The notes: a model not told the origin generated them from the letters alone. Shown: positions 101 to 60,621, counted from the stretch's first letter. The stretch is DNA of 64,000 nt from Malacoraja senta (GCA_038087875.1 CM075988.1:5146001-5210000), one strand, 5' to 3'. Made by a program: numbers and translations.

Positions 101-310
101 GTAGGAAGGAACTGCAGAAGCTGGTTTAAACCGAAGATAGACATAAAATGCTGTTGTTACTCAGCGGGACAGGTAGCATCTCTGGTGAGAAAGAATGGGT
201 GACTTTTCGGGTTGAGTCTGAAGAAGGATCTCAACCCGAAACATCACCATTCCTTCTCTCTAGAGATGCTGCCTATCCAGCTGAGTTAATCCAGCATTTC
301 GTGTCATCTT
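101..310. mobile_element. Fold-back PLE mini-insertion (type A)
   Basis: Two inverted copies of the PLE 3' repeat (GACACAAAATGCTG...GAATGGGTGAC), meeting at a decayed CTGAAGAAGG..CCCGAAAC core. Confidence 0.8.
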
Positions 311-721
311 CCCCTTTCCAGCATGTACCCCAATATAAGGTGCACTGCTTTAGCCTCACAGGGCATTTCTGTCAAGCTCAATATCTCCCAATCGTGAAAC
401 TTCCACCACCTGCAAAGACAAGGCCAGAAGGAACATGGAAACACTACTGCCTGCCGTTATCCTTCGCGTCACATTCCATCCTAATACAGCTCCTAATGTG
501 AAGGATAAATTTAATATGCCTTACCTATATGCTCGATTAAAACCTAAGCATTGAAATATTACTGCTTGACCTATGCTCTAGATTAAGAATTGAGCCATAG
601 AGACATTACACAATTAGAATTGAGGAACTAGATGCACTTGACAAGGCTTACTTAAGTTACTTCATAATGCGAGCTGCAAGCAAAGGCTAAGTTTGAACCA
701 ACTGAGCCGTACCGTTAGGCT

Positions 722-1542
722 ACAGGAGGAAGGGGCGCCACATTGAAGGCACCTTTGCCTTCAGTCTGTCCGTTTTTTCACATCTTTTTTTAATTTTAGT
801 TTGTCTAAACAGATTGTTTTGGGGATTCTTTAGTTTTTCTATGTGGGGGAAGGGGATAGGATAAGGGGGAAACCATTTCCCGGGACTGCGACTATTTCTC
901 CGTGTCGTGTCCTTGCCCCCCCTCCTCGCGGTCTACCACTGGATCCTACCAGAGCTTCGGCAGCGGCGGCGTGGCGCTGGATTCACCGTGGAGCGGGCGA
1001 TACCTACCTGGATCGTCGTCTGAAGCTCCGGAGCATTGGGCCCGCTGCTCCAACATTGCGGGGCTGTGGGTTTGCGGAGCTCCCTCGCGCGGGCGGCGCT
1101 GACCGATATCCCGGAGTCCTGGGATACTTTGCCGAGGGCTGCCAGCGTGAATCTCTGCCCGGCGCGGCCTGGGGACGTCTTGAGCTGCGGACTTCGGTGG
1201 GAAGCGGCCGATTTGGAGGTCCAGCCGCTGAGGTTGGCCTCCCGTTCCGACGTCGGAGTTCCAACATCCCGGTGAGCGGGCCTGAGCGGCGGGCTGCCCG
1301 TAGCGGCGACTGTGGAGGGCTCCGGAGGCCCCGACCACGGGTGAACATCAGAGGAAGATGACTGACTTTGGAGCCTTCCCTTACAGTGGGAAACCTTTGA
1401 TTCTGCTGTGTGGGGATGTTTTATGTTGAACTCTATCGTGTGTTGTGTTCTTTATTTTAATGTATGGCTGTATGGTGATCACATTTCACTGTGCCAACTG
1501 GCACATGTTACAAATAAATGTATCTTGTATCGTGTATCTTGT
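722..1542 (+). mobile_element. CpG-rich non-coding retroposon with LINE-type 3' tail
   Basis: T-rich head, GC-rich body, tail TTTCACTGTGCCAACTGGCACATGTTACAAATAAA plus TGTATCT repeats; shares sequence blocks with 2172-3180. Confidence 0.65.
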
Positions 1543-2171
1543 AAGCATCTGTATAGTTACAATGTTAATATGGGAATTAACTGGAGAAAGGAGAAGTGCA
1601 GAAAGTGAACTTGTCTAGAAAATCGGGTAGTTAGTGCAACGTGTCTAAATATTGGGGTCGTCAGTGCTGAGTATGTGGAAAGTTGTGGCTAAGCAGTAAC
1701 TGACCTAATGGCCATCTGGCATCTGTTATTGTAATATACGATTAGCCTTACTCTTGACTGTTTGTATGATGCAATCAAACTCGTCGGCACCCTAAATTAC
1801 TTCTCGTTTTTTGTAGGTATAAAAATGCAGCTCGCCCTCTCCATCATTGAGTGGGTCTTAGAGCGACAAGCACTATGTAACCATACTGACTGTGTCTCCC
1901 CTACTCCCGGTTTCCGTAATAAAGAGTGATTTGTTTGACTGAAATTGTTTGATGTACTCTGTTGTCTTCTAACGAAACTTTTACACTTCAACTTTGCCAT
2001 GTCTAGTTCCTGAAACTCCTCCCATAGCACTGTGGAACTATCTTCACCTGGAAACCTAAGCTAGACACAAAAGCTGGAGTAACTCAGCGGGTCAGACAGC
2101 ATCTCTGGAGAAAAGAAATAGGTGACGTTTCAGGTCGAGACTTCAGACTGAGAGTCAGGGGAAATGGAAAA

Positions 2172-3180
2172 AATAATAATAATAATAATAGATTTTATTT
2201 AAGGGCGCCTATACAAAAGTCTCAAGGACACCTTACAAAATTTAACAAAGAAACATTAATCAGAGTAAAATAAGTTATAAAGACATCACAATACACAAAT
2301 TAAAGACAGAAATTCGATCCAAAAAAGACAACAACAAAATTCAGAAACACAATGTGAAGGGAGAGCAGCGGTAGCCAAACCGCGCCAGCGTACACTCTCC
2401 CTTCTGACCGCCATCTTGGACATAGACTAACATAGACACTACACACTACACACAAAATCATCCCCCCACAATGGTTACCACTGTGGGGGAAGGCACAATG
2501 TCCAGTCCCCAACCCAGTTCTCCCCAAAGTCAGGCCTATTGAGGCCTCCACAGTTGCCTCTATGGAGGCCCGATGTTCCTGGCCGTTCTCGCCGGGTGCA
2601 GTTGCCCCGGCGTCGGGAGAGTCCTCGCAGCGGCTGGGTCAGCTGGAATGGCCGGTTTCCTACCGGAGTCCGTGGCACCTGAAGCCGACAAGGCCGCGCC
2701 GATTTGGAGCTCCGAGGCTCCCGATGTTAAAGTCGGCGCCGCCGCCCGCGGCTGGCCGCTCTGCAGTCCCGCAGCCCGGAGGTGTTGAGCTCGGCAGTCA
2801 CCGCTTACCGGAGCTCCAGCGCGTCGATCCAGCGCGACGACCCAGGCAAGGCATCGCCCCGCTCCGCTCCGCGATAGCGCTCCAGCGCTGTGCCGCCACC
2901 GAAGCTGAAAGTGCTGGGCAGTCCCCGCCCGGAAACGCCACTCCACGCGCTACACGCCCGCTGGTAGGCCGCAAGGACGGGTCGACGGGGCAGCCCGGAG
3001 AAAAAGCTGCCTCACCGACCAGGTAGGGACCTAGAAATAGTTTCCCCCTTACCCCCCCACATTAAAAGTCAAAATTCCCCAACAGACAAAGACATAAAAA
3101 AACTAAAAACTAAGAAAAAAAAGTGAATTTAACGGACGGCTGCTGGTTAGCAGCCGTTCCCCAAGATGGCTCCTCCTCCT
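2172..3180 (-). mobile_element. CpG-rich non-coding retroposon with L2-like (TTA)n tail, inserted in a PLE remnant
   Basis: Minus strand ends TGTAAGGTGTCCTTGAG..GGCGCCCTTAAATAAAATCTATTATTATTATT; head homologous to 722-1542; flanks 2058-2170 and 3190-3430 are halves of a PLE 3' region. Confidence 0.65.
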
Positions 3181-4573
3181 CATCCACCTATATGAGTGAT
3201 ATAGACGGTGATGTACAGAGATATAGAACAAGCAAATGAACGATAAGCAAAAAAGTAAAGATGATAAGGGATACAGGCCATCGTAAGCTATGGGCCAGGT
3301 GAAAATGAGTTTCAGACAATGAGACTCAACAAGACAACTTTGAAACTAGTACAACAACTTGGGTGGGGAAGGGACGGAGAGAAGCGGATGCAAGTGTTAC
3401 TTGAAGTTAGAGAAATCAATATTCTTGTATCACTATGCTTGTCATGCATACCTGGCCTCCAGTGCTATCTCTGTGGAGTTTGCATGCTCTCTGTGACCGC
3501 ACGGGTTTTGTTCAGGTGCTCCGGTTTCCTCCCAAACGCATGCACGTGGGTCAGGTTGACCAGCCAGAGAAAACTGTCCCTAGTAAGTGGGTTAGCAGCA
3601 GAATCCAGGGAGATCCTGTTGCATTTCAAGAGGTCACCTGACCACCACCCTTCTCAAAGACAATTCGGAATAAATGCTGGCCATCTGCAGATCATATCTC
3701 CAATAATGGGGATCATGACAGAAGCCTCCTCCTGGCGATCCCTGGAAGCGATGGCACGATGCATTCTGCGACGCGTCGGGCAACAATTCTGGCAACATGT
3801 TGGACGATGGCAGAAGCCAACAGCGAACTACATCGCCTGACACACGAGCGAACAAACGAACGATCTCCAATAATCAGGGGAGGGATCACTCTCCATTAGT
3901 CTCACCAATGCTTCTGCTATTTTGCTCTCACAAGATTCCACCTCATTTCTCTCCCTTACTGTCCTATCTTATACCTTCTCCAACCTCTCACCCTCAGTTT
4001 CCTGCTCTCTCACTTTCACCACCTCATCGCCCCTTTCTCTCCCAAGTACAAATACTCTGTTACTTTTCTTGACCTCTCTCCTCTACTTGGTGATCACCCG
4101 TCTGAACAGCACCATGGAGATGAGCTCATTTCAATTTAAAAGCATTTCACCATAGCAGAGATGTTGCCAAATGTTGTTATCAATGAACGTGGGTACCAAC
4201 CATATAAACAGCATGATCCTCCATCTCGCCTCCAGTAACGTATGTGGTCACCCATTCATCTCCTGCTGTAGAAATTAACTCCTGTGCAAATGAACTGTCA
4301 GTACAAAGTCAGAATCCAATTCCCTGAATTTATTACTTTAATTGTGCGTAGTTTGCTGTCAGTATATTTTACTCTGGTGGTTTTGCTCAGTACACAATGT
4401 TAGTCTGGATATATGGGGAAGGGATAACTGGCCGGTAGACATCAGTGCAGTAGTTCCTGGCCTCCACTGTCTATAGATTTCCACTTATATTTACCTGGTA
4501 GGAGAGAGAACATGAACAAAGAGGCGGATCTCCCAACGAGGTTATCGCATTGTACTTTGTATGTGCAAAAGCA

Positions 4574-4912: not shown

Positions 4913-6157
4913 TATTGCCCACTGTCTTTATCTGCCAACTCCACCCTCCTGGCTCCTTTAAGAAACATAGAAACATAGAAAATAGGTGCAGGAGTAGGCT
5001 ATTCGGCCCTTCGAGCCAGCACCACCATTCAATATGATCATGGCTGATCATCCAAATCATTACCCCACTCCCACTTTTTTCCATTGATCCCTTGATTCCA
5101 TTAGCGCTAAGAGCTAAATATTTTGTCAACCATCCCACACCTCACCGCGGTCCTCTAGTCATCTACCAGCCCCTGTCTCACCCCTTCCCTCTATATTGGT
5201 TATCTCCCGTTTCCACACTGTACAAACAGCACCCATGGTCAGGAAGAGGACCCAGTTCTCTGAGGCTGTAAGGCAGCAACTCGACTGCTGTGCCGCCGTG
5301 CCGCTTTTATAAATTGTTCCTGATGTGTAGGGTGTGGGGGAGAAAGTGTAATAACGGTAAACTAATGTGAACGGGTGATCGATGGTCGGCCTGGATACGA
5401 TGGGCCGAAGGGCCTGTTTCCTTGCTGTACCTATCAAAACAAAAAATAAATGAATGCGTGTCTGCCTTTTTTCCACTATGGTACACCAGGCTCTTCTTTA
5501 AAAAAAATCCAAATAAATAAGGTCTGAGTTTGCAGTTGTTTATACAGCTTCACATCTTGTCAGTGTGGATTGCTGAGAGTCTTGGCCTGGTTTCAATAAG
5601 AACGGTTTTCAGTCGAATGACAGCATTAGTGTCCAGCAGACAAACAAGTCCTCGGGGATGAAAAGCCAAACTGAGCGCTGTACCATGCATGCCACCTACT
5701 GGGAACGTGCTGCCAGGATTATTTTAATGAGAGGATTTGCAGGGAAAACGTATCGTTCATAACCCCAGGACATATTACAGAACATTAAAGACAATTAATT
5801 ACGACAGAAGAGGTGCCACTTGTAATGTAAGAAACTTCAGTTAATTTCATCCCATAAACAGCAGTATGATGTTGGACAGATGTTCAGTTTGGGTGGTGTT
5901 TGCGGGCAATTCTTTGTTCAAGATGATGGAGAGAACTCCCACACTCTCTGTAAAATGGCATGAAGCCAGTTACAGCAAGCGGATTGTAAAAGCACAGTCT
6001 CAACTTAACCTCATGCAGCTGATGGTCTGTACTCAAGACTATGGACAGTTCTGTGGATGGATATTCTTCTAATTCAGACACAGCCATGCTATTAATTGAG
6101 CCATAGAAGATACCTATATTAACAGCGGCACTGAAACCCTGTTTGATTTCTGACCTG

Positions 6158-7047
6158 GAGACTGCAAGGTGACTTGGATAGGCTGGGTGAGTGGGCAAAT
6201 GTTTGGCAGATGCAGTATAATGTGGATAAATGTGAGGTTATCCACTTTGGTAGCAAAAACGGGAAGGCAGACTATTATCTAAATGGTGGCCGATTAGGAA
6301 ATGGGGAGATGCAGCGAGACCTGGGTGTCATGGTACACCAGTCATTGAAAGTAGGCATGCAGGTGCAGCAGGCAGTGAAGAAAGCGAATGGTATGTTGGC
6401 CTTCATAGCAAGAGGATTTGAGTATAGGAGCAGCGAGGTTCTACTGCAGTTGTACAGGGTCTTGGTGAGACCACACCTGGAGTATTGCGTACAGTTTTGG
6501 TCTCCAAATCTGAGGAAGGACATTATAGCCATAGAGGGAGTGCAGAGATGGTTCACCAGACTGATTCCTGGGATGTCAGGACTTTCATATGAAGAAAGAC
6601 TGGATAGACTTGGCTTATACTCGCTAGAATTTAGGAGATTGAGAGGGGATCTTATAGAAACGTACAAGATTCTTATGGGGATGGACAGGCTAGATGCAGG
6701 AAGATTGTTCCCGATGTTGGGGAAGTCCAGGACAAGGGGTCACAGCTTAAGGATAAGGGGGAAATCCTTTAAGACCGAGATGAGGAAAAACTTTTTCACA
6801 CAGAGAGTGGTGAATCTCTGGAACTCTCTGCCACAGAGGGTAGTTGAGGCCAGTTCATTGGCTATATTTAAGAGGGAATTAGATGTGGCCCTTGTGGCTA
6901 AAGGGATCAGGGGGTATGGAGAGAAGGCAGGTACGGGATACTGAGTTGGATGATCAGCCATGATCGTATTGAATGGCGGTGCAGGCTCGAAGGGCCGAAT
7001 GGCCTACTCCTGCACCTAATTTCTATGTATCTATGTATCTATGTATC
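6158..7047 (+). mobile_element. CR1/HER1 LINE, 5'-truncated, young (open frame 6174-6944 = ORF2 C-terminus)
   Basis: WQMQYNVDKCEVIHFG, RDLGV, LVRPHLEYCVQFWSP, RRLRGDLIETYKI, RTRGHSL, FFTQRVVNLWNSLP; 3' UTR ends in TATGTATC repeats. Confidence 0.95.
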
Positions 7048-18435: not shown

Positions 18436-18637
18436 GGTACACAAAAATGCTGGAGAAACTCAGCGGGTGCAGCAGCATCTATGGAGCGAAGGTAATAGGC
18501 AACGTTTCGGGCCGAAACCCTGCTTCCGAAACGTTGTCTATTTCCTTCGCTCCATAGATGCTGCTGCACCCGCTGAGTTTCTCCAGCATTTTTGTATACC
18601 TTCGCTTTTCCAGCATCTGCAGTTCCTTCTTTAACAC
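18436..18637. mobile_element. Fold-back PLE mini-insertion (type B) with 14-bp TSD
   Basis: Near-perfect palindrome; TSD GTTCTATAACCAGT at 18422-18435 and 18638-18651. Confidence 0.88.
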
Positions 18638-20409: not shown

Positions 20410-20593
20410 TTAAGAAGGAACTGCAGATGCTGGAAAATCGAAGGTAGACAAAAATGCTGGAGAAACTCAGCAGGTGAGGCTGCATCTATGGAGCGAAGGA
20501 AATAGGCAACGTTTCGGGCCAAAACTTTGCCTATTTCCTTCGCTCCATAGATGCTGCCTCACCCGCTGAGTTTCTCCAGCACTTTTGTCTACC
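20410..20593. mobile_element. Fold-back PLE mini-insertion (type B) with ~16-bp TSD
   Basis: Palindromic arms; TSD TCCTCCAGCACT(A/T)TGT at 20394-20409 and 20594-20609. Confidence 0.85.
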
Positions 20594-20659
20594 TCCTCCA
20601 GCACTTTGTTTTTTACTTAACATTCCAACATCTGCAGTTTCTTGTATCCCCTGTCTGAC

Positions 20660-21905: not shown

Positions 21906-24251
21906 ATCAAACAGTAGTTGGACCACAACTGGAGTACTATGTGCAATTCTAGTCACCACACTGTAGGCAAGATGTGATTGTACTGGTGAGGATGCTAAGG
22001 AGATTAACTTGAGGAATTGGAGGCGCAGCACCTGATATTTTACTTGGATAGCTTATAACTTAATGGTATGAACACTGAATTTTCCAAATTTAGGTAACTA
22101 AGCTCCTCTCTTTATTTATTTGTTTTCCCTTCTCTCTCTCTTCCATCTGGATTTACTCCCAATTCTCCCCTTCCATCTCTTCCTGTCCCCTTCCACTTAT
22201 ATTCTTTCCTCTTGCTTTACAATTGCACTTCTCTCCTTATCTCACATCTTTTGTCTTTTGTTCTCTGGCGTTTGACCAACCATCTGCTTATCAAAAACAT
22301 CCCTCACCTGTGTCCACCTATCAGCCGCCACACTTTGTCCCGTTCCCACCTCTCTTCCAGCTTTTCCCTCCTCCAACACAATCCATCTGTAGTCCTGACC
22401 TGAAACATCATCTTTTCATGTTCTTTAGAGATCCTGCCTGACCCACTGAGATAGTCCAGCATTTAGTTTAGTTTAGTTTATTGTCACGTGTACTGAGGTA
22501 CAGTGAATAGCTTGTGTTGTCTGCTACCCATTCAGTGCAAAGCCAATACATGATTGCAATCGAGCCATTCACATGATAGTGGGGAATAATGGGAATAACG
22601 TTATAAGCCTTCTAAGGAAGTAGAGGAGTTGGTGCGCTTTCATCGATATAGCTAGTCCAGGACATGTTGCTGGTGATATTTACTCCTAGGAACTTAAAGC
22701 TTTCAACCATCTCTACTTTGGCACCATCAATGTACACTGAGTATAAACACAAAATGCTGGAGTAACTCAGCGAGACAGGGAGCATCTCGGGATGGAACGA
22801 ATGGATGTCGTTTCGGGTCGAGTCCCTTCTTCAGACTGAGAATGAAGGGAGAGGGAGACACGGAGATATGGAAGGGTAAGGTGTGAAAACGAGACATCAA
22901 AGGGGATTAGCTTCAAGGAAAATGTAGAATAGATTATTGTCAGCTAGGGGAAGGTGACAGTGAAGCATGCAAAGATAAAATTTAATCAGGAGGGCGGCAG
23001 ACTTGTCAGATGGGGCAGGGATGGAGAGAGATGGAAACACTAATAAATGTATTAGAACAACAAACCATGGATGAAGTCTCACAAGAATTTTACCAGAGAA
23101 TTTACGTCATTTTAATCCATCACAATCAGAAATATACATCCCATGCTTTCAGTCACTCTGCCCCAAAGAGACAGTGGGCATGTAAATTGTCATAAAGATA
23201 TTGACTAAATGCAGCAACAATCGGAGCTGGTTGGATCAGGTAATATCAGATTATTTTGTCTGTGGGCAGAGAGTGTTCAATCAGGACTATTTGGCACACA
23301 GGCCCTGATGGTGGATGGTGTGGGCGGAATAGTCACAACTACAGAAACGAACGTGAAACAGTTTTAATCTGGACACACATTCAGAGGTGTAGGCAATGTC
23401 CTTGTGTCAAGAAACAGGAGGTCCCACGAGACAAGGGATAAGAGGGTCACTGGGGTGGAAGAGGGACAAATGTTGCTCTATCAAAACACAAAGTCGTGGG
23501 AAAGCTCATCAGCTCAGGCTGCATCTGGGGATTGAATGGGCGGGTGACATTTCATTCAGTCTGAAGAAGGATCCCAACCCGATATCTCACCTCTCCATTC
23601 CCTCCACAGGTGCTGCCTGACCCATTGAGTTATTCCAGCGCTCCGGTTTCACTCAAAATTCCAGCATCTTGAGGGAGGCACAGTCCTTGTGTCACAACAC
23701 CTGAGACCCCGGTTCAATCCCAAACTCGGGTGCTGTCTGTGAGGAGTTTGCACGTTCTAATTGTGACCACAAAGGTTTCCTCCCACATCCCAAAGATGCA
23801 CAGATTGGATGGTTAATTGACCGTCTATAACTTGTCCGGAATGTGTAGAGAGTGGGTGAGAAAGTGAGATAACATAGAATTTGTGAGAATGGGTGTCCGA
23901 TGCTCAGCTGGGGCTGAAGGGCCAGGTTCCATACTGTATCTCTGAACTAAACTAAACATCTGCAATTCTTTGTGTCTCCAATATATCCCATCTCATGGCC
24001 ATTAGTTTGTGCAGCAGTCTTTCTAGTGCATTTGATTGAATGCCTTCTGAACCTTCAAACACGTTCTATCCATTAGCTTCTTTTTATCCACCCTCTTAGT
24101 TGCAATCGCAAATTCTGTTACATTTTTAAAATGTGATTTTTCTTTCATCAAATCCTTAGATTCGTCATAACATTGTTCGAAGCATTGAAAGCAATTGATC
24201 AGTTGTCATCAATCAAAAACAATGTGGCCATTAATCATAGTGAGGCCATTC

Positions 24252-31551: not shown

Positions 31552-34500
31552 GTAGACACATAAATGCTGGAGTAACTCAGCGGGTCAGGCAGCATCTCTG
31601 GAGAGAAGGAATGGATGACGTTTCGGGTCGAGACCCTTCATCAGACTGATGTCAGGGAAGGGTCGGGACAGAGATAGAATGTAGTCAGATACAGTAAGAC
31701 TGGTGGGAGAACTGGAAGGAGGAGGGGATGGAGAGAGAAAGGGAAAGCAAGGGCTATGTGAAGTTATGAGAAGTCAATGTTCATGCCGCTGGGGTGTAAG
31801 CTGCCCAAGCAAAATATGAGGTGCTGTTCCTCCAAATTGCACTGGGCCTCACTCTGACAGTGGAGGAGGCCCAGGACAGAAAGGTTAGTGTGGGAATGGG
31901 ATGGGAGTTAAAGTGTTTAATAACCGGGAGATCAGATTATTTTGGCAGACTGAGCGAGGTGTTCAGCGAAACGATCGCCGAGCCTGCGTTTGGTCTCGCC
32001 GATGTACAGGAGTTGACACATGGAACAGCAGATACAGTAGATGAGGTTGGAGGAGGTGCAAGTGAGCCTCTGCCTCACCTGGAAAGACTGTTGGGGTCCT
32101 TGGATGGAGTCGAGGGGGGAAGTAAAGGGACAGGTGTTACATCTCCTGCGGTTGCAGGGGAAGGTACCTGGGGAGGGGGTGGTTTGGGTGGGAAGGGACG
32201 AGTTGACCAGGAGTTTCTGAGGGAACAGTCTCTGCGGAAAGCAGAAAGGGTGGAGATGGAAGATGTGGCCAATAGTGGGATCCCGTTGGAGGTGGTGAAA
32301 ATGGTGGAGGATTATATGCTGTATGCGACGGCTGATGGGTGGAAGGAGAGGACAAGGGAGACTCTGTCTTTGTTACAGATGGAGGAGGGGGAGCAAGAAC
32401 GGAACTGCGGGATATTGAGGAGACCCTAGTGAGAGCCTTATCTATAATGGAAGAGGGAACCCCCGTTTCCTAAAGAATGAGAACATATCTGATGGCCTGG
32501 TATGGAACACCTCATCTTGGGCGCAGGTGCGGCGTAGATGGAGGAAGTTGGGGATAGAGTATTTACAGAAAGCAGGTTGGGAAGAGATGTAGTCTAGATA
32601 GCTATGGGAGTCAGTGTGTTTGTAATAGATGTCGGTCAATAGTCTGTTTCCTGTGATGGAGACGGTGAGATCTAGAAATGGTATGGAGATGTCGGAGAAG
32701 GCCCAAGTGAATTTGAGTGCAGGAAATTCTCGTGAAGTTGATGAAGTCAGTGAGTTCTCCATGGGTGCAGGAGGTAGCACCGATGTAGTTGTCAATGTAG
32801 CGGAGGTAGAGTTCGGGAATAGGGCCAGTGTATGCCTGGAACAGGGATTGTTCAACGTACCCTACAAAGAGGCAGGCATAGCTGGGGCCATGCGAGTACC
32901 CATAGCTACGCCTTGGATTTGGAGGAAGTGGGAGGATTCGAAGGAGAAATTGTTGAGGGTAAGGACCAGCTCTGGTGGCAGAGGAGAGTATTAGTAGAAG
33001 GAAATTTGCTGGTTCTGCAGTCGAGGAAGAAACGGAAGGCTTTAAGACTTTCCTGGTGGGGGATGGAGGTGTAGAGTGACTTGACATCCACAATAAAGAT
33101 GAGGGAGTGAGGGCCTGGAAAACGGAAGTCATTGAAGAGACGAAAAGCATGTGAGGTGTCTTGGACATAGGTAGGGAGAGATTGCACCAGGGGGGATAGA
33201 ATGGAGACGAGGTATGTGGAGACTAATTCGGTGGTACATGAACAAGCAGAAACAATGGGTCTGCCAGGACAATTCAGTTTGTTGATTTTGGGGAGAAGAT
33301 AAAATCGGGCCGTGCGGGGCTGGGGAACGATAATGTTGGAGGCTTTAGAGGGCAGAGAGCCGGAAGTAATAAAATCAGAAATGGTGTATGATATCAAGGT
33401 CTGGTGCTCGTCAGTGGGGTCATGGTCCAAGGATATAGGAGGAGGCGTCTGAGAGTTGTCGCCTGGCCTCAGCCCGGTAGAGGTCAGCGTGCTAGACTAC
33501 CACGGCACCTCCCTTGTTGGCGGGTTTGATTATCAAGTCGTGGTTGCTGCAGAGTGTGCGGAGAGCTGTACGTTCAGGGGGGGAGAGGTTAGAGTAAATA
33601 AGGGAGTGGAGAAGTTGAGGCGGTTGATGTCCCGCCGGCAGTTGGAAATGAAAAAGGTCCAAAGAAGGTAGAGGGCCATCCAGGGGAGTCCAAGAGGGGG
33701 TCAAGTGGAGATGGGAGAAGGGGTGATCACTGGGTGGTGAGGACACCTTCCCATAGAAAAAGGCCCAGAGGCGGAGGCGACGGAAGAAGAGCTCCACATC
33801 GTGGCGGACCCGGAACTTGTTGAGGTGGGGGCGGAGGGGAACAAAGGTGAGGCCTCTGCTGAGGACAGACCGTTCCGTATCAGAAAGGGGGAGGTCAAGG
33901 GGGATGGTGGGTATTCCATGAGGAGGGGGGCATGAGGACTATTTGTATGGGTGGGGAGTAGCTGGGGTCAACCTGGCTAAAAGGAAAAGGGGAAGAACCA
34001 GTGGAACCCCCACTGAGCTTCCCAGTAGGAGGGGGAGAGCAGTAAGACCCAGCACAGTCAGATCCCGTGGTGTTGGAGTCTGCATCGTGGAGGCTGTAGG
34101 CCGGTGCTGAGCCTGGGACTCGCGTAAGGCCACGGCTGTGGCCCACTGGTGGGCGGTGGAGTGGCGAGGGTCGGCGGAGTTGCTGGTGGAGGCCGCAGGG
34201 AGTGGAGTCCGGGTCAGCGGATGAAGCGTCGATATTCCTGGTCAGCGGATGGCCGGGGAGGAGGCAAGAATATGCAAGGTGGCAGTGGTGACATCGGGGA
34301 GGCGGTGGGAGTTGGCGACAGCGGCCCCGGGGAGGCGGTGAAGGTCAGTTGTCCCGTGGAGGAGGAGAAGGTCGGTGGCAGCGGCAGCTTCGGTGGTCCG
34401 GGCCTGGGAACGGCCAGGAAGGCGGTGAGTGTTGGTGCTGCTCCTCTTGGCAGCAATGGCATCACGGGTCTCGGCATGGTGATGGTCGGGAAGGTGGCGC

Positions 34501-35098
34501 GGACCAGCGGTGGAGCACCGGGCCTGGGGGCGGTCGGGTCGAGGTGTAGGGACCGGTCTGGAGGCGGGCAAGTTTGCAATCCTTTGTGGCGTCCAGGTTG
34601 GCGAGGAAGTGTTTGTTGAGGGCGTGGGTCTGGCGTTGAAAGAAGTGCAGTTGGGGTCCATCGCAGGTGTGGGTGAGTGAGGCCCGGAGCTGCGGGAGAG
34701 TCCGAGCGAGGGGCCTGTTGGTGTCGGCGCATCGCAGCCAGTGTAGAACGCAGGGCACGGAATGAGAACTGTTGTGAAAAATGGCAGATCGACTGTTGGA
34801 ACCGATAGTCCGGGTTGTGTCCGAACTAGGGTGTCTGGAGACGGAGTTGGAATCTCCGTGGTAGCAGATGGAGGCGCAGGCAAACGTGGCAGTGGTAGCG
34901 GGACTGGGTTACAACATGGTCGTAGAGTCGGAGGGAAGGAGAAAACACAGGGGGGGGCAGTGAGAGAGGATGTTGCTGAACTCTCGTAGGAGAGAGGATG
35001 AGAACCTCTTCAAATTAGACATACCTTGAGGAGATTTCGCAGTGGAGCGGACAAAACGTGTAGGAACGAACTGCAGATGCTGGTTTAAATCAAAGGTA
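31552..35098 (-). mobile_element. Penelope-like element, Neptune-type, near full length, frameshifted
   Basis: ORF fragments FFRRLRL, SNLSPPERTAL, IKPANKGGAVVV, FYLLPKINK, GRPIVS, DVKSLYTSIP, GPSYACLFVG and YLRYIDN; Cys-rich linker GTFPCNRRRCNTCP; GIY-YIG LIYCICCSMCQLLYIGETKRRLGDRFAEH. 14-bp TSD TAAATCTGTTGATT at 31538-31551 and 35114-35127. Confidence 0.93.
31617..31644 (-). ncRNA. Minimal hammerhead ribozyme motif in the PLE 3' repeat
   Basis: Minus strand reads CUGAUGA-A-GGGUC(UC)GACCC-GAAA-CG-UC: catalytic boxes, helix II, palindromic ACGU in place of helix III, and a GUC cleavage triplet. Minimal hammerheads are established features of PLE pLTRs. Confidence 0.75.
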
Positions 35099-38200: not shown

Positions 38201-40373
38201 CTCTCTCGATCCCTCTCCCTTCCTAGTTCTCCGACCAGTCTAACTGTCCTCCTGATTAAATGTTATCTCAGGATGCTTTGTTGTCACCTTCTCCTTGCTA
38301 ACAATGATCTATTCTACATTTACTTGATCCCCATGCCCTTTAATCTCTTGTTTTCACACCTTACTCTTCCTTATCTCTGTCTCCCTCTCCCCTGACTCTC
38401 AGTCTGAAGTATGGGGCTTGACCCGAAACGTCAGCCATTCCTTCTATCCAAGAGTTGCTGCCTGTCCCGTTGAGTTGCTTCAGCATTTTGTGTCTTTCCA
38501 AGATTGTCCAACCTCTCGTTATAGCTAGTACTCCCTAATCCAAGAAGCATTCTGGTAAACCACTTCTGCAACCTCTCCAAAGCCTCCACATCCTTGCTGT
38601 CAAGGGATAGCCAGAACTGTATGCAATACTCCACATAATCGCAAACCATTCGACTTTTATTCTGATTATATTATGAATTGGGAAGAATCTTTGATCAAGC
38701 TCCACATGTAATGAGACTGAAAATAACACTATTCAATATTTATAAAGAAAAATAACAAAAATACCTTTGTTAACTGCTGCTTTATCGAGCCTGATATTTT
38801 ATTTACAAGTACTAAGTGAATTGATCTTTTGCAACAAAAACCAAAGCACAGTAGAGGCACAAGGAATTGCAGATGCTGGTTTACAAAAAAGGAAGCAAAG
38901 TGCTGGAGGAACTCAGCAGGTCAGTTGGCATCTCTGGAGAACATGGATAGGTGAAGTTTCACAGAGTGCTGGAGTAACTCAGCGGGTCAGGCAGCATCTC
39001 TGGAGAACATGGATAGGTGACATTTCGGGTCAGGATCCTTTGGACTCAGGCTGAAGAAAGGTCCCAACCCAAAACGTCATCTCTCCATGACCAACATATA
39101 GTAAAAGATAGACACAGAATGCGGGAGTAACACAACAGGACAGGCAGCATCTCTGGACCCATTCTTTCTACCCAGAGATGCTGCCTGTCCCGCTGAGTTA
39201 TTATCTTCAGTGTAAACCAGCATCTGCAGTTCCTTCCCACACCAACAAATAGTGGGGAAGATTGAAGAAGGGTTTCGGCCCGAAACGTTGCCTATCTCCT
39301 TCGCTCCACAGATGCTGCTGCACCCACTGAGTTTCTCCAGCATTTTTGTGTACCTTCGATTTTCCAGCATCTGCAATTCCTTCTTCAACAACCTGACAAG
39401 ATTATTACGTTTGGATGCATTAGCCTGGCAAAGGCCTGGACAGAGTGAATGTGGAGTGAATGTGGAGAGGATGTTTCCATTAATGGGAGAGTTTTGGACC
39501 AGAGGCCATCATCTCAGAATAAAAGGACGTACCATTAGAAAGGAGATGAGGATACATTTATTTAGTCAGATGGTGGTGAATCTGTAGAATTATTTGCCAC
39601 AGATGGCTGTGGAGGAGAAGTCAATGGATATTTTTAAGGCAGAGATTGACAGATTCTTGATTAATACAGGTGTCAGGGTTTATGGGGAAAAGGCAGGAGA
39701 ATGGGGTTGAGGGGGAAAGATAGATCAGCCATGGTTGAATGACCTAATACTACTCCTAGAACTTATGAACATATAATTAGTTACTTTTTTATTGTCATGC
39801 TGTAGACTTTAGACGAGAGAAACAGCACGGAAATAGGCCCTTTGGCCCACGAGAATGCTCAACCAGTGATCACCCCATATACCAACACTAGCATACACAA
39901 TTGGAACGATTTAGAATATTATCTAAGCCGAGTAGCCCACAAACCTGTACGTCTTTGGAATGTGAGGCGAACCGGAGCCCCTGGGGAAACCCCACGTGGT
40001 CACAGGGAGAAAGTACAAACTCCGTACAGAGATAGTCAGTATCAAACCCGTGTCTCTGGCGATGTAAGGCAGCAACTCTACCGCGGCGTCACTGTGCTGC
40101 CCCACGTACAAAAATATGGTGAAATGCTTGTTCTGCATGCTATGCAATCAAATCATACAATAGATCCTCTGTGGAACATTACGTAAAAGGTCACCGCGTT
40201 CAGGGCACCATCTTGCAACTTCCAAGTCTCTGAAAAGTCCGATCTTGGCCCAAGGAGTTAGATACATATATACATTAGCATACATTATATGTGATAATAT
40301 GCATATATTCATAATGTGTGCATTTTTCTGCAGATAACACATTTATGTGTGTATGTACATATATATATAAATA

Positions 40374-40520
<147 letters not shown>

Positions 40521-40635: not shown

Positions 40636-40823
40636 TAGACACAAAATGCTGGAGCAAATCAGCGGGACAGGCAGCATCTCTGGAGAGAAGGAATGGGCAA
40701 GGGTTTCGACCCGAAACGTCACCATTCCTTATCTCCAGAGTTGTTGCCTGTCCGGCATTTACTCCAGCATTTTGTGTCTACCTTCGATTTAAACCAGCAT
40801 CTGCAATTCTTTCCTACACATCC
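40636..40823. mobile_element. Fold-back PLE mini-insertion (type A) with 14-bp TSD
   Basis: Palindromic arms; TSD TATAAATATGTAGG at 40622-40635 and 40824-40837. Confidence 0.85.
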
Positions 40824-41403: not shown

Positions 41404-42205
41404 AGGAGGGAACTGCAGATGCTGGTTTAAACCGAAGATAGACACAAAATGCTGGAGTAACACAGCGGGACAGGCTGCATCCCTGGAGAGAAGGAATTGG
41501 TGACGTTTCGGGTCAAGACCCTTCTTCAGACTTGTCAGTCGAAAGCGAAACGAGAGATATAGACAGTAATGTGGAGCGATATAGAACAACTGAATGGAAG
41601 ATATGCAAAAATGTAACAATGATAAAGGAAACAGTCTATTGTTAGCTGTGTGCTAGGTGAGAACGGGAACCTGGTGCGGTTTGGGTGGGGGAAGGATAGA
41701 GAGAAAGGGCGTGCAGGGGTTACTTGAAGTTAGAGAAATCAATATATTCATACCACTGGGTTGTAAGCTGCCCAAGCGAAATATGTGATGCTCTTCCTCC
41801 AAATTTGCGATTAGCCTCACTCTGACAATGGAGGAGGCCTTGGACAGAAAGGTCAGTGTGGGAATGGTAAGGGGAGTTAAAGTAGACAAAAATGCTGGAG
41901 AAACTCAGAGGGTGAGGCAGTATCTATGGAGCGAAGGAAATAGGCAACGTTTTGGGATGAAACCCTTCCTCAGACTTGAGTCTGAAGAAGGGTTTCGACC
42001 CGAAATGTTGCCTATTTCCTTCGCTCCATAGATGCTGCCTCACCCGCTGAGTTTCTCCAGCATTTTTGTCTACCTTCGATTTTCCAGCATCTGCAGTTCC
42101 TTCTTGAACAGGGTAGTTACCTGAACTCCCGGTTGACAAGCAGTTAAAGTGTTTGTCAACCGGGAAATCAGGTAGGTCCAGGCGGACTGAGCAAAGGTGT
42201 TCAGA
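41404..42205 (-). mobile_element. Neptune PLE 3' fragment containing a nested type-B fold-back mini-insertion (41882-42110)
   Basis: EEEHHIFRLGSLQPSGMN on the minus strand; 3' repeat with tail extension; the PLE sequence resumes at ~42140. Confidence 0.8.
41502..41529 (-). ncRNA. Minimal hammerhead motif (PLE remnant, type A)
   Basis: Minus strand CTGAAGAAGGGTCTTGACCCGAAACGTC. Confidence 0.65.
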
Positions 42206-46500: not shown

Positions 46501-47138
46501 CCAGCATCTGCAGTTCCTTCCTACTTGCTTGGCCTTGTCCCAGTCCCACCTCTCTTCAAGCTTTCTTCCCCCTTACTACAATCAGTTTGAAGAAGTGACC
46601 CACCCAAAATATCACCTATCCATGCTTGACCCAACGTTTCGATAGTCACAAAATACACTTATCCATGGCAAGAACATTATCCCTCAGCTAAGGACATTAA
46701 ACGTGCACACATAACTCCAAATTAGATCTCACCAAGACTCAATATTGTTACAGCAATTCGTCCTTGATCCTGTGCTTGAATCAACCAAGAGTGATAAACC
46801 TCATACCATTTTCCTTCCTCTCTGGGAAGTTATTTGTGTTCTTTTTCTTTGTACCCAATTATAATTTCCCTGGAGATAGACACAAAAAGCTGGGGCGGAT
46901 CTCAACGGGTCAAGCAGCATCTCTGGAGAAAAGGAATCGGTGACATTTCGGGTCGAGATTCTTTTTCACACTCCGAGTCTGAAGGAGGGCCTCGACCCGA
47001 AACGTCACCTACTGTATGTCTTTTCTCCAGAAATGCTGTCTGACCCGCAGATTTACTCCTGCATTTTGTGTCTACCTTTGGTGTAAACTAGCATCTGCAG
47101 TTCCTTCCAACACATTTTGTCGGGCCCACAGTTTGTCC

Positions 47139-50100: not shown

Positions 50101-50979
50101 TAGGATATGTTAAGGGCTTTAAAGTATTGCAGTACAACATGTTGTTGTTTCTTCTGTTTATATAGATTGGTAGAAGAAGGAACATCATCAATAAAGCAAT
50201 AAACATTCTCAGTCGTTTCAAGAATAATCTTGTGCAGCAGTATGTAATGGTATCAGCAAGAGTACAGGTCGTATCTTACCTGGTATTGAGCATTGAACCA
50301 GACTTGGTCAATAATCGAGTTATAAAAGAAGCATTTAGCTTACAATCATTACTAGCATAACCCAGTTCAATTGTAGGCTTGAAACAAAAAGAAAATTCAC
50401 ATATTTACTTCTCCCGACTTTGGAGAAGTTAATTAGCCATATTTCACATCTACCCATCCAAAACAATATCCCTGATATTCTGTAGAGATCCACTATAAAA
50501 AAATATACCACTGGCGGCATGGTGGCGCAACGATAAAGCTGCTGCCTTAGAGCAACAGAGAACCGGGTTCGATCCTGACTGCGGGTGCTGTCTGTACGTA
50601 GTTTGTACGTTCTCCCTATGACCTGCGTGGGTTTTCCCCGGGTGCTCCGGTTTCCTCCCACACTCCAAAGATGAACAGTATTGTAGGTTAATAGTAAGAT
50701 TAAATGAGAACTTACCAGTTTGAAGTTTGATCTTTATTTTATGAGGAGTTACGATGAGGGATTACGTGAAGAAGCCCGCCAGACGCATGCGCGTCAATCT
50801 TCAAAGCAGCGGTGTGAAAACACAGATAACAGTTGATGAACTGAGTATAGTAAGATTCGAGAAAGTAGAACTATCAGCTGATCCTTATGAGAGAGGGTTG
50901 AGAACGGCGGGCACGTAATGGTCCTCATAAAATAAAGATCAAACTTCGAACTGGTAAGTTCTCGTTTAGTCTTACTATT
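47139..50979. repeat. Direct-inverted-direct local triplication
   Basis: 47264-47868 = 49484-50088 (direct); 47895-48181 = 50693-50979 (direct); ~48124-49497 is the reverse complement of the same segment plus 47155-47263. The identical 72-aa and 84/95-aa ORFs on opposite strands in the ORF track confirm this. Confidence 0.92.
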
Positions 50980-54998: not shown

Positions 54999-57684
54999 TG
55001 GCTTGGTAAAATTGTAAATTGTCCCTAGTGTGCATAGGATAGTGCTAATGTGCAGGGATTGCTGGTCTGTGCGGGCTAGGTGGGCCAAAGTGCCTCTTTC
55101 CATGCTGTATTTCTAAACTTTCAACTCTAAACTCTAAGCTCCACTGGGACAGAGATAACTGAAAACTGTGTGTGATTGGGTGTTTCTAGGTATAAAGAGT
55201 GAGGAGTGTTCAAAAATAATTTACAGCTTAATGCAAATATACAAAGTGATGATGTACTTATACAAAACTAATGAACCCATAAGGATTTAAATATTATTAA
55301 TTGGATGGCAGAGTATTAAAATCAGCAGATAAGGTGCACAGAAGAATATAAACAAAAGACACAGAATGCTGGAGTAACTCAATAAGTCAGGCAGCATCTC
55401 TGGAGAACATGGATAGGCGACGTTTCGAATTGGGACCCTTCTTCAGATTGATTGCAGTCGGGAGAGAGGGTGGGTTGAAAGCTGGATGAAACGTAGGATT
55501 CGTACAATAAAAAAGCCTGCATTATCGAGATTAACTAAACATTTCTCCAACTATTTGCGAATAGAAAGAGCAATCAAGGATAATGTTAACTCTAAAAACA
55601 ATCAATAGAAGTATGATGGATTAAAATAGGAAATCACAAGGCATGTTGCAGAGTTACTTTGTATCAGAATTCCCAGGAGGAAGAAGTAAACACTTCAAGA
55701 AAAATAATTAATATGATTCTTTGAGTTACAAAACCAGGAAAACAAAAATAGGGAGGAATAAAGCACTAAAATCTGATAACTTGCTCAGATCTGAGAAGTT
55801 TCACAAGTAACGTTAAGGGCAATTAGGGAGAAAGTTTCAGATCCTTTTAATATCCATCTTCCAAACCTGTTAATTCAAGAGTACTTTCTTTAAATTGGAC
55901 AATTGCAAATGAAGTCTCATTATTTATTAAAGAGAATACTACAAACTACTTGCCTGTCAGCCCGAATTTATTTTGAGAACATTATTGGTAATTTTAATTA
56001 AGAACAAAGTAAGAGAAGGCTTAGGAAATGTGAGCTGATTTTAAGGAGACAAAATGTATTGATATGGCTTTTCTGAAATGAGCCTAATTGATCTTTTTAG
56101 TTAGTATTGTATTTGAATTGGTACAGTTTAACATCAATGGATAAAGCTTAGATAGATCTCCAGAAGTCATTCAAAATGGTTCCACATGAGAGCATCAGCT
56201 AGAAAGCTAAAGCATCTGAACATAAATTTATTGAACTTGGAGATTGGCTAATTGCAGAAGACAGAATAGCAACCTCGAAATTCAAATGCATGTTAAAATG
56301 CATCTGGTGAGATTTGAGTTCAGCCTAGAGGTCAAACTGCATCTCTGGAGAACATGGATAGATAGCGTTTCAGGTCGGGACCCTTCTTCTGACTCAATGA
56401 GGAATCAGACTCAGTTGGCCCGACCCCAAGCGTCACGTTGCTAAGTTTTTCAGAGATGCTGCTTTACCCACAGACCTACTACAGCACTTTGTGTCTTTTT
56501 TTCTAAACCAGCATCTGCTGATCCTTGTTTCTACAAAGACCTAGAATACATATGTAGCACAGAGTGTGGTAAATAAGGTTGGTATCCAGTAGGCATCTTG
56601 GAACATGACATAGTGGCAAGAATAAAGAAATGGTTCAGAGAGATGCCAGATAAAAGTCCTCTAACAAAGGCAGGGCAGGAGGAAAGGGAACAGGGTGGCG
56701 GTCAGAAAAGTTAAAAAGTCATATACACTCCATCCTAGTATGGGAGTAGGGAGCTCCATCAGTAGGGAAGCTCCTTGTGAGCGCTGCGCAGCCATGCTGG
56801 AGTGGACCCAGCCAGTGGCCGAAGGAAACAAGAACAAGTCTGGCGGCCAAAGTGACTGATGAGAATGAGGATGGACCAGACAAGGACCGACCAGTGACTG
56901 CATTTATGGTTTAGTTTGGTTTAGAGATGCAGCGTGCAAACAGGCCCTTCAGCCCTCCGAGTCCGCACCGACCAGCGATCCCCGCATATTAACACTACCC
57001 GACACACATTAGGGAGAATTTACATTGTCAGACCTATACGTCTTTGGAGTGTGGGAGGAAACCGAAGATCTCGGAGAAAAGCCACGCAGGTCACAGGGAG
57101 AATGTACAAACTCCGTACAGACAGCACCCGTGGTCGGGATCGAATCCGGGTCTCTGGCACTGTAAGTGTTGTAAGGTAGTAACTCTACCGCAGCACCATA
57201 CTGAAAGGTATGGTTGTGCAAAATAATTTCACTGTGCTGTGCATATGCAACAATAAAGAACCACTGAACCATTGAACCATCCGCTGTTAAGAACCTGCAC
57301 CTCCGGTCCCTTTTAAATATTTATCCTCTCATCTTAAAATGATGTCCTTTATTTTTAGATTTCCCCTGTTCTTTGAAAAGAAATGTGACCATTCACCTTA
57401 TCTATTCCCCTCAGGACTTTATAAACCTCTATAAGGTCACACTAAAACTCCTTTTGCTCAACAATCCCAGCCTAGCCAGTCCTGGTAACATCTTTCTGAA
57501 TAGTTTATGTACCTTCTCCAGCTTATGGTGACCAGAACTGCTCACAATACTCCACTAGACCCGTGCATGTAAAGGTCTTGATGTGAATGCTTGGCTGTTG
57601 TTTCAATGTAGTTGGTTTATGACAGATAGTTGGTAATATTAACATCAAGGACTTCAAGCTCCGAACCAGTTCCATTGGTTTACC

Positions 57685-58637: not shown

Positions 58638-58811
58638 AAGATAGACACAAAAAAATGGATTAACTCAGCGGGACAGGCAGCATCTCGGGAGCGAAGGAAT
58701 GGGTGACGTTTCAGGTCGAGACCCTTCTCCAGAGATGCTGCCTGTCCCGCTGAGTTACTCCAGCTTTTTGTGTCTATCTTCAGTTTAAACCAGCACCTGC
58801 AGTTCCTTCCT
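58638..58811. mobile_element. Fold-back PLE mini-insertion (type A)
   Basis: Inverted arms; flanks AACA(A/G)AAAAAATAA resemble a TSD. Confidence 0.78.
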
Positions 58812-59988
58812 CAACAGAAAAAATAATCTCCTCTGCCTGCATGTAATCCATATCCCTCCATTCCCTGCACATCCATGAGCCTATCCAAAAGCCTCTTATA
58901 TGCAACTATCACATCTGCCTCCACCACTACCACTGGCAGTAGGTACCATGAACCCACCACTCTCTGTGCAAACAATGTGCCCCACACATCTCCTTTAAAC
59001 TTTGCCCCTCTCACCTTAAAGCTATGCCCTCCAGTCTTTGACATTTACACCCTGGGAAAAAAATGTGCTGACTGTTTACCTATGCCTCTCATAATTACCA
59101 GTCGTCCATCAGCCTCCAATGTCCCAGAGAAAACAATCCATGTTTGTCCAACCTCTCCTTGTAGCCAATACCATCCAATCCCAGGCAACATTCTGGTAAA
59201 CCTCTTCTGCACCCTCTCCAAAGCCACCACGTCCTTCCTTGTAATGAGGTGACCAGAACTGTTTGCAATACCTAACCCAAATCCTGACAACAGAGAGAAG
59301 GAAGTCACAGGATAGGAACATCTTTCCAACCAGAGGATGTTGATGCCTAACATTTAGACCAACGTTTCTCTAGACACACACTAGTATTTTAATGTTGAGC
59401 TCAGAAAGTAGCATTTCAATGTTTTCAACTGACAATGAGCTCGGACATCTTGTAAGCACTAAAGGGTGGTCATAGATGGCAAGAGATGCCAGATACACTG
59501 GCAGAATGGGTCAACAGGAAACAAATTACATTTAGTAATGGGAATTTGAAAGTTGTGATTTCTCAATGAGAAATGAGGGCCACTATTGCATGAATGGCAT
59601 AGTTCTCAGAGAGTGCGTGAGAACTAAAGGTGTATATGTGTGCAGGTTTTGAATAGGGCAGGAGAGGTTGAGATAGCAGTTGACATAGAACAGGGAAACT
59701 TGCGCATCATTAACAGAGTCAAAGTGTAAAAGCAAAGCTGCAATGCTTTAGTTGAGAACGTTCCTATTTGCGGATGGTAAACATGACACCTCTAAATAGG
59801 CTCCAGACTTGGAGACATTGCTTTTGACTTTGCATTACTATGGTCTATCTATTCATCTGTTTAGTGTATGTACTGAACATTTTGTTGTTGTTTATTATAG
59901 TTTTTACAGAGAATAGGTTTACATATCTGCTGTGTTGCGGCAAATAAGAATTTGTTTGTTCCATTTGGAAAATATGACAATAAAACAC

Positions 59989-60210
59989 ATAATGTGTAGG
60001 GAGGAACTGCAGATGCTGGTTTACACTGAAGAGAGACAGAATGTTGGAGTAACTCAGCAGGACAGGCAGCATCTCTGGATAGTAGGAAAGGGTGATGTTT
60101 CACGTCGAGACCCTTCTTCATTCTGAAGAACACGAAACGCTACCCATTCGTACTATCCAGAGATGCTGCCTATCCCGCTGATTTACTCCAGCATTTTGTG
60201 TCGATCTTTA
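59989..60210. mobile_element. Fold-back PLE mini-insertion (type A) with 12-bp TSD
   Basis: TSD ACAATAAAACAC at 59977-59988 and 60211-60222; arms meet at CTTCTTCATT/CTGAAGAACACGAAAC. Confidence 0.82.
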
Positions 60211-60390
60211 ACAATAAAACACTCTTGACTCTTGACTCTTTTTGTGGATCAGGGACAGAGATGGGCAAAAGACAACCGGCAGGTGTGAACAATGTGCGGT
60301 AGTGGGTCTGAATAAAACACGAGTTGGACACAACAGGAATAACGCATTCAATTCTATAGCAAGAATGTGCAGAGAAGATTATTTACGTGG

Positions 60391-60621
60391 GTACACAACA
60401 ATGCTGGAGAAATTCAGCAGGTGCAGCAGCATCTATGGAGCGAAGGAAATAGGCAACGTTTCGGGCCGAAACCCTTCTTCAGACGTTTCGGGCCGAAACC
60501 CTTCTTTCGGCCCGAAACGTTGCCTATTTCCTTCGCTCCATAGATGCTGCTGCACCCGCTGAGTTTCTCCAGCATTTTTGTGTACCTTCGATTTTCCAGC
60601 ATCTGCAGTTCCTTCTTTAAC
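60391..60621. mobile_element. Fold-back PLE mini-insertion (type B) with reiterated hammerhead core
   Basis: Palindromic arms; centre has tandem and inverted GGGTTTCGGCCCGAAACGT units; flanks AGATTATT(T)TACGTGG duplicated. Confidence 0.85.
60455..60482 (-). ncRNA. Minimal hammerhead motif (PLE type B, UUCG-capped helix II)
   Basis: Minus strand CTGAAGAAGGGT(TTCG)GCCCGAAACGTT. Confidence 0.65.

Follow-up and report, generated by a model that had tools for sequence, protein, structure and literature searches.

Fold-back insertions of a Penelope-like element in a skate genome and the position at which their arms turn

A 64-kb window of the skate Malacoraja senta (GCA_038087875.1 CM075988.1:5146001-5210000, the whole 64,000-nucleotide stretch analyzed here) contains short palindromic inserts whose arms copy one end of a Penelope-like element (PLE) and meet head to head beside a predicted hammerhead ribozyme motif. 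How do such inserts arise, and what sets the point at which their arms meet? The original prediction took them for independent retrotransposition products, in which ribozyme cleavage or the helix-II hairpin of the hammerhead fixes where synthesis of complementary DNA (cDNA) stops and flips. We found that the first part of this prediction agrees with the data and that the second does not. An inverted pseudo-long terminal repeat (pLTR) with a one-sided tail, a target-site duplication (TSD) and a palindromic junction has already been published for PLEs (PMC3846280, PMC8557442; statements about these and the other papers cited refer to the parts of them available to us). The only new detail is a fixed turning point at the 5' edge of the hammerhead motif.

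Anatomy and ancestry of the fold-back inserts

The arms correspond to parts of one element within the window, which has regions for a reverse transcriptase (RT) and a GIY-YIG endonuclease (EN) and is therefore written EN+:

31552..35098, minus strand: near full-length, frameshifted EN+ PLE with RT, GIY-YIG and a Neptune-type linker; 14-bp TSD
35058..35098, minus strand: tail sequence (~40 nt), with which the full element starts at its 5' end
31613..31647, minus strand: predicted minimal type-I hammerhead motif (CUGAUGA, 4-bp helix II, GAAA, palindromic ACGU)

This element is of unit length without a terminal repeat, running from the first bases of the tail to the tail-less end, and about 15-19 nt of filler precede the TSD on its 5' side (unit to 35111). 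The tail seen in the inserts is the first ~40 nt at its 5' end. The GIY-YIG region matched Pfam just under the cut-off (E 2.8e-4, 21.6 bits against 22.6), and the RT pieces of the window itself gave no Pfam match (five of the six pieces were blank). The best RT homologues, which are 74%, 68% and 64% identical, are named from ray and sharks; among 79 homologues, many carry RVT_1 and some GIY-YIG. The CCHH motif used to define EN+ PLEs (PMC8557442), with two cysteines between GIY and YIG, is present as far as its first histidine (LIYCICCSMCQLLYIG...EH in frame 32372-31935). Upstream of GIY-YIG lies CNRRRCNTC (CX4CxxC), a form of the CX2-5CxxC linker common to Neptune and Nematis (PMC8557442), and this motif marks the element as putatively of Neptune/Nematis type.

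Positions are given below as a coordinate c relative to the predicted hammerhead cut (GAAAC-GUC^ or GUU^), with +1 as the first base 3' of the cut. CUGA begins at c -28, and the tail-less and tail ends lie at about +63 to +70 and near +105, respectively. In the full element the predicted cut falls between 31617 and 31616, and 31647 is c -31, the A of TCAGT. A 22-row alignment of the motif shows CUGANGA, GAAA and NUH, an extra base before helix II and a palindromic helix III; helix II is 88% paired and helix I has just 2 bp. In helices I and II, 80% of cells are paired compared with 18-40% when the pairing is slid, and the changes are one-sided, with no excess over shuffles and no two-sided covariation in the hammerhead pairs of this alignment. 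No Rfam hammerhead match was obtained in the window at E<=5, and the minimum-energy monomer fold omits the motif in most of 8 copies. The motif thus matches, as a sequence, the minimal type-I hammerhead of PMC4209133, and self-cleavage is a prediction from it.

Head-to-head pairs of these Neptune-type pLTR ends occur 14 times in the 64 kb, 13 of them complete. All nine inserts of the original prediction are present to within a few bases, and a profile search of the window added five (23482-23670, 38960-39090, 39105-39242, 56330-56535 and 61386-61592). They are listed below with the inner ends of the tail-less and the tailed arm, in that order:

101..310, minus strand: fold-back; tail-less arm to c -31, tailed arm from c -14; weak TSD (10 bp, 1 mismatch)
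18436..18637, plus strand: fold-back, subfamily B; c -26 / -9; 14-bp TSD
20410..20593, minus strand: fold-back, subfamily B; c -10 / -11 on a 7-nt microhomology; 18-bp TSD (1 mismatch)
23482..23670, plus strand: old fold-back, added here; c -9 / -33; TSD not found
38855..39090, minus strand: partial direct tandem plus inverted arm; turn at about c -31 / -31 (by eye; raw -22 / -35)
39105..39242, plus strand: short fold-back, added here; c +15 / +2; 13-bp TSD (1 mismatch)
40636..40823, plus strand: fold-back; c +1 / -22; 14-bp TSD
41882..42110, plus strand: symmetric fold-back, subfamily B; c -31 / -31 with a 2-nt centre; weak 10-bp TSD
46874..47115, plus strand: symmetric fold-back; c -31 / -31 with a 3-nt centre; TSD not found
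56330..56535, plus strand: old fold-back, added here; about c -31 (by eye; raw -57) / -18; complex centre; TSD not significant
58638..58811, plus strand: fold-back; c -23 / +15 on a 6-nt microhomology; 14-bp TSD (1 mismatch)
59989..60210, minus strand: near-symmetric fold-back; c -29 / -27; 12-bp TSD
60391..60621, plus strand: fold-back, subfamily B; tail-less arm to c -30 (by eye; raw -46), tailed arm from c -17; 15-bp TSD
61386..61592, minus strand: old near-symmetric fold-back, added here; c -30 / -27; 12-bp TSD (1 mismatch)

The fold-back at 38960-39090 is interrupted and joined to the direct tandem, and its tail-less arm ends early, at about c +12. At 60391 a repeated antisense piece lies between the two arms. 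Hammerhead-to-tail matches, inverted or not, cover 8.7% of the window.

The anatomy of the inserts, their TSDs, the independence of their centres and the places where they turn can be observed directly. Each of the 13 complete inserts has one tailed and one tail-less arm (best-case chance 1.2e-4), the tail at 23482 being partial; this is the arrangement characteristic of canonical PLEs, an inverted pLTR that is 5'-truncated and has 30-40 nt of tail on one side only, within a TSD of variable length. The tail-less arms had been described as stopping at the same point as the full element; they do end near its end at 31552, in a zone of about c +63 to +70 (by eye) rather than at one base. Non-inverted copies in the window have their 3' ends at the same two ends as the fold-back arms. 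TSDs of 12-18 bp with 0-1 mismatch stood above a null of 420 cross-paired flanks (p<0.02) in 8 of the 13 complete inserts; those of 101, 41882 and 56330 are borderline, and none was found at 23482 and 46874. For the nine inserts first described, several of which had been credited with TSDs, these are clear in six, while 101 and 41882 show only weak 10-bp repeats and 46874 none. By comparison, none of six short non-inverted copies tested had a TSD at this level (8/13 vs 0/6, Fisher p=0.018).

The 14 inserts have 14 different centres and fall into at least three subfamilies. The two arms of an insert lie at distances of 0.04-0.38 (they differ by 4-38%). In nine of the 14 inserts the partner arm holds rank 1-3 of 19-27 arms, and in the other five rank 11-14. 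Arms cluster by subfamily rather than by side: between-locus distances are 0.273 for tail-less with tail-less, 0.242 for tailed with tailed and 0.263 for mixed pairs, which shows no side structure, and both starred clades contain both arms of their loci. One weak branch (84/79) groups the tail-less arms of 20410 and 41882. With variable long TSDs, distinct centres, several subfamilies and no left-arm or right-arm lineages, the inserts are independent Penelope-like retrotransposition products, as had been proposed, and they were formed repeatedly over a long time.

These data also bear on two other origins. If the inserts were a DNA miniature inverted-repeat transposable element (MITE), or a single master palindrome amplified as a unit, their palindromic shape and high density would be expected, and the three or four copies with a centre near c -31, the weak branch just mentioned and one type of joint found in 14-28 contigs per run would fit as well. 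However, the TSD length varies, the ends are asymmetric, no two centres agree, the arms are the ends of an RT and GIY-YIG element, and the symmetric terminal inverted repeats (TIRs), fixed short TSD and uniform interior of a DNA MITE were not seen. The MITE reading is therefore largely refuted, and a master copy is highly improbable. The second origin, an assembly artefact from fold-back reads, could be suspected from a separate 2.6-kb, 97-99% palindrome at 48124-50747. Against this, the two arms of an insert have diverged, 8 of the 13 complete inserts lie between TSDs, and four independent sequencing runs contain a matching opposite-strand joint, so that the likelihood of such an artefact is close to negligible. 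In addition, tandems of the non-LTR retrozyme type, with two or more directly repeated units that each hold a complete motif, were not found; the lone partial tandem is that at 38855-39050.

Position of the turns relative to the hammerhead motif

Inner arm ends were obtained by aligning both arms to a profile built from non-inverted copies only; at 38960, 56330 and 60391 the profile had run across the centre, and the ends were adjusted by eye. Of the 28 arm ends, 26 lie within c -33..+4 and the other two at +15, which places the turns in or beside the hammerhead, as predicted, and makes the breakpoints non-uniform along the element. No inverted junction was seen elsewhere along the 3.5-kb element in the window. 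The furthest reach per insert was -33, -31 (five inserts), -30 (two), -29, -26, -23, -22, -11 and +2, so that nine of 14 fall at c -29..-33 (scan p<=2.5e-4 under all seven nulls, four uniform and three geometric). In a count made by eye, none of the 14 fold-backs extends past c -36, compared with about 10 of 18 non-inverted copies (p=0.001). In direction, the tail-less arm extends further upstream in five inserts and the tailed arm in three, and six are near-symmetric.

We considered whether cleavage of the ribozyme fixes the turn, with the RT running off a 5'-OH end at GUC^ or GUU^ and then flipping. Such a model is in line with the confinement of 26 arm ends to the motif, with an arm end at +1/+2 in each of 40636 and 39105, and with one non-inverted copy that starts at +3. 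The cut itself is not enriched, however (two of the 28 arm ends come within 3 nt of it, p=0.72), and 24 of the 28 arm ends lie upstream of it. Because most arms carry sequence from upstream of the cut, their template must have been uncleaved there. Helix I has only 2 bp, mutation of the ribozyme left insertion unchanged in a purified PLE system in which no reads started or stopped at the cut (PMC11167929), and no pile at the cut appears among the best 24 of 8781 loose ends in public contigs. Cleavage as the determinant of the turn is thus very unlikely.

A stall of the RT on RNA structure (helix II, which had been proposed as a second cause, or a folded or dimeric hammerhead) that triggers the switch fares little better. 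Seven of the 28 arm ends lie at c -21..-9, the 20410 insert turns on a subfamily-B hairpin that overlaps helix II, and helix II is well paired across copies. Nevertheless, the centre of helix II, at about c -15, is not the midpoint of any of the six near-symmetric turns, the motif is missing from most of the predicted monomer folds, and an RT traveling 3' to 5' should presumably halt on the +4 side and not at c -31. We therefore regard a structural stall as unlikely. The pile-up at c -29..-33 is on the far side for an RT moving in this direction and fits better with a boundary of the template than with a structural block.

What lies at this boundary is the sequence TCAGT at c -31, which resembles an initiator or a splice acceptor. 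TCAG is found 5' of the motif in five of eight long copies, and the human initiator consensus is BBCA+1BW (PMC5287114). To look outside the window, contigs of four public runs, of which the two large ones comprise 336,691 and 392,983 records, were aligned to the full element. Two of the runs may be RNA or may be DNA, and these contigs are uninformative on expression, transcript starts or cleavage. A set of 1169 contigs in run X3 diverges from the element, with a consensus that stops at c -31; joints in direct, head-to-tail orientation at c -30 were seen in 19, 11, 0 and 2 contigs of the four runs. Because of these loose ends and direct joints, the boundary is not peculiar to inversions. A joint of the 58638 type (+13/-23, 4-5 shared bases) was found in 14, 28, 4 and 3 contigs, and it is the lone internal opposite-strand joint in the top 15 of 3240. 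Summed depth in run X1, which is not a measure of copy number, was 37.5 million in the last 120 nt compared with 0.74 million in the next bin and at most 6.9 million elsewhere upstream, and 3.7 million in the tail bin compared with 27 thousand alongside; divergence of upstream subfamilies contributes to this contrast.

Proposed twin priming and its alternatives

The best explanation, to which we give a probability of roughly one half, is twin priming at two RT start sites, followed by run-off at a 5' boundary of the RNA and joining through microhomology; the priming on both strands, the nature of the boundary and the way in which the ends are joined are what we infer. Each insert would be its own retrotransposition event, in which the element protein would place nicks in the two target strands, 12-18 bp from each other. 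One cDNA would be primed at the tail end and the other at the tail-less end, from opposite target strands, and both would copy uncleaved RNA, mostly halting at or before a boundary ~31 nt upstream of the cut. This boundary would most likely be the RNA 5' end, at the initiator-like TCA+1GT, or alternatively a splice junction at the same AG. The cDNA ends, variably trimmed, would then be joined via short self-complementary words in the hammerhead region, which would leave a head-to-head palindrome between TSDs. The ribozyme would mark the site of the turn without its cleavage being the trigger. Because each strand would be primed at its own site, such a scheme would account for the polarity, the one-sided tail, the TSD and both directions of asymmetry without extra steps. 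A purified PLE protein, for which a dimer is predicted, has been reported to nick both strands and to extend them, and to begin reverse transcription at two sites that bracket the tail (PMC11167929).

A strong competitor, although the less probable of the two, is a self-primed fold-back, in which a tail-primed cDNA folds at a native quasi-palindrome 5' of the motif and copies back, the EN resolves the product at the pLTR end, and later microhomology deletions make the centres asymmetric. Palindromes at inverted pLTR junctions have been reported and self-priming proposed for them (PMC3846280). In our window, native GACT-n-AGTC and CAG-T-CTG palindromes coincide with five of the six near-symmetric turns, the sixth falling on a subfamily-B palindrome, both arms are always of one subfamily, and the full element has its first base precisely where the tail starts, which a fixed cut at this point would yield. 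However, an inverted arm cannot exceed its template, yet the tail-less arm does so in five of 14 inserts; because of this, a single tail-primed fold-back is insufficient alone, a second event is required in these five, and the predicted 'stop and flip' of one cDNA needs extra steps. The direct head-to-tail joints at c -30 also have no explanation in a self-primed fold-back. The native hairpin is weak (mean -4.0 compared with -2.5 kcal/mol for shuffled sequence), with stronger self-priming sites elsewhere: the self-priming energy of c -29..-40 ranks 1, 6, 16, 37, 38, 42 and 46 in seven copies and is not singled out. In several copies, one of the better pairings available locally is -24/+13. The native hairpin as the sole cause of the turn was considered separately and set aside as weak.

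Several observations weigh against twin priming at a fixed boundary. The sample is small, with 14 inserts from a single window. Without the by-eye adjustments, the cluster at c -29..-33 falls to six of 14 (p 0.056, 0.017, 0.004 or 1e-4 depending on the null) and two of the 14 fold-backs extend past c -36. At least two long tailed copies (41375 and 20291) cross the c -31 boundary, which is thus not absolute. The native pyrimidine-rich upstream sequence resembles the reverse complement of the 5' half of the motif, and because of this resemblance alignments cross the centres by 15-35 nt and the exact boundary is blurred. The alignment breaks themselves defined the pile of loose ends in X3, the best 15 of 3240 joints include no symmetric -31/-31 joint, and the full BBCABW consensus is matched (by eye) in just three of eight long copies. 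A native hairpin centred near c -33 occurs in five of eight long copies against 3.0 expected, which favours the fold-back route. Microhomology between target and element ends at the TSDs is 0-3 nt by eye and not above chance. The protein studied in vitro, PAc, belongs to the Poseidon clade, unlike the element here (PMC11167929).

The nature of the boundary raises two further issues, the first of which is a cap. A copied cap would leave a G at the cDNA end. At c -32, G is present in six of nine arms and in none of eight long copies (p=0.009), but only three of the nine are without another explanation (p=0.21), the idea is post hoc, and the X3 loose-end consensus at this position is T and not C, all of which count against it. 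Our search for literature on a cap-templated G in L1 found none. The second issue is splicing. A strong splice-donor-like site lies ~35 nt beyond the tail end, at about 35024 on the minus strand, and together with the acceptor-like AG at c -30 it could place two hammerheads about 170 nt apart. No splice or back-splice joint between 35024 and this AG is among the best 15 of 3240 joints, no second post-tail copy was found in the window, and the fit of the 41882 centre to splicing depends on just 2 informative bases. In Drosophila virilis, the Penelope intron ends at the 5' end of hammerhead helix I (PMC4209133), which corresponds to the position of the boundary in our motif.

We tentatively suggest that ray and shark genomes might hold a vast fossil record of Penelope twin priming, in which a dimeric RT-EN would start on both target strands at two fixed sites of the RNA, the two cDNAs would run off a capped 5' end at a hammerhead-abutting initiator, with a cap-templated base left in some centres, and their ends would be joined. 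If this speculation is true, the tail, the inverted pLTR and the TSD would arise in one step, and the transcription start could be mapped from DNA alone.

The predicted hairpins of the fold-backs have 38-97 pairs, with a longest uninterrupted helix of 6-58 bp (13 inserts); that of 41882 has a folding energy of -173.7 kcal/mol (z -23.8). The ~80-bp double-stranded RNA (dsRNA) originally expected therefore suits the younger copies and not the older ones. Young copies, if transcribed, would yield long dsRNA. The inserts are easily mis-annotated as MITEs or microRNA precursors, and sub-threshold Rfam microRNA matches were obtained.

We also noted other features of the window. The 20410 fold-back sits inside the pLTR of an older PLE copy (20291-20647), at the pLTR end itself, and that at 41882 lies within an older PLE fragment (about 41375-42230). 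Opposite-strand joints of the pLTR end to the tail end (31562/31565 to 35058) were found in 39 and 25 contigs of X1 and in 38 and 32 of X3, and may reflect self-targeting like that of these nested fold-backs. The remaining features are as follows:

47139-50979: recent complex inverted duplication, either real or, as it could also be, an assembly artefact; it includes the 48124-50747 palindrome (96.6% overall, 99% over 1214-nt arms), centred on tail-to-tail PLE ends, and a third copy at 47139-47868
12516-12833, 28972-29232, 47894-48181 and 50692-50979: ~290-320-bp family with 46-83-bp TIRs, which has the appearance of a genuine MITE and no relation to the PLE arms
3697-3770, plus strand: sub-threshold Rfam match to a CPEB3/HDV-like ribozyme (26.4 bits, gathering 35, E 0.0087)
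8900-10200 and 25760-28400: decayed open reading frame (ORF) fragments, which we take to resemble DIRS-type retroelements (RT plus tyrosine recombinase)
6147-6944: presumably a CR1-type RT end
62588-63118: long short-period tandem repeat that gives a repetitive open frame

Comparison with known systems

The origin of PLE inverted repeats and tails is called unresolved in PMC8557442 and PMC11167929. In very large numbers, the ORF-less inserts isolate the inverted junction, and they bear on the choice between twin priming and self-priming and on the part played by the hammerhead. Our search, which mostly left out subscription literature, including older Penelope work, found no paper in which the inversions of PLEs are located at the 5' hammerhead edge or in which twin priming is proposed for these elements. 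Searches combining Penelope, MITE and skate inverted repeats found none either, a search for literature from 2024 on both-strand target-primed reverse transcription with inversion in PLEs found PMC11167929 alone, and the available parts of PMC6431247 and PMC8969392 contain nothing on turning points. Pattern scans for fold-backs in metagenome contigs, viral contigs and prokaryote genomes gave no match.

In L1 twin priming, the second target strand primes a second cDNA, and the result is a 5' inversion joined by microhomology between TSDs. The sequence inverted in L1 is the adjacent upstream sequence, whereas here both arms copy the same region, which gives a palindrome and implies two fixed internal priming sites. 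The Poseidon element PAc likewise has two ends that bracket the tail, AT-rich targets, insertion into its own pLTR and no need for ribozyme cleavage, and it is without the CX2-5CxxC linker seen here (PMC11167929).

Metazoan PLE minimal type-I hammerheads share with our motif the conserved core, the extra base before helix II, a G-C first pair and a palindromic helix III (PMC4209133), and dual hammerhead motifs on opposite strands, 100-700 bp apart, have been described in PLEs (PMC4209133). By contrast, helix I here has 2 bp, the opposite-strand motifs are adjacent and often partial, and they are known from the DNA sequence alone. Animal non-LTR retrozymes are likewise short non-coding derivatives of PLE pLTRs with type-I hammerheads, but they are direct tandems with a complete motif in each unit (bioRxiv 10.64898/2026.07.22.740005), whereas the fold-backs are inverted pairs, often with partial motifs.

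The closest counterparts are canonical EN+ PLE insertions such as Pen2a_Av and Pen3a_Av, which have head-to-head pLTRs with a 30-40-nt tail on one (PMC3846280; PMC8557442, Figure 2), a TSD round the whole unit, a palindrome or overlap at the inverted junction and a hammerhead in the pLTR (PMC3846280, PMC8557442). The fold-backs differ from these in having no ORF between the repeats, a total length of about 140-240 bp and a density of 14 per 64 kb. Their TSDs are 12-18 bp long, compared with 8-10 bp in the rotifer examples (PMC3846280). Finally, their turns are counted here against hammerhead coordinates, unlike those in the available parts of PMC3846280 and PMC8557442.

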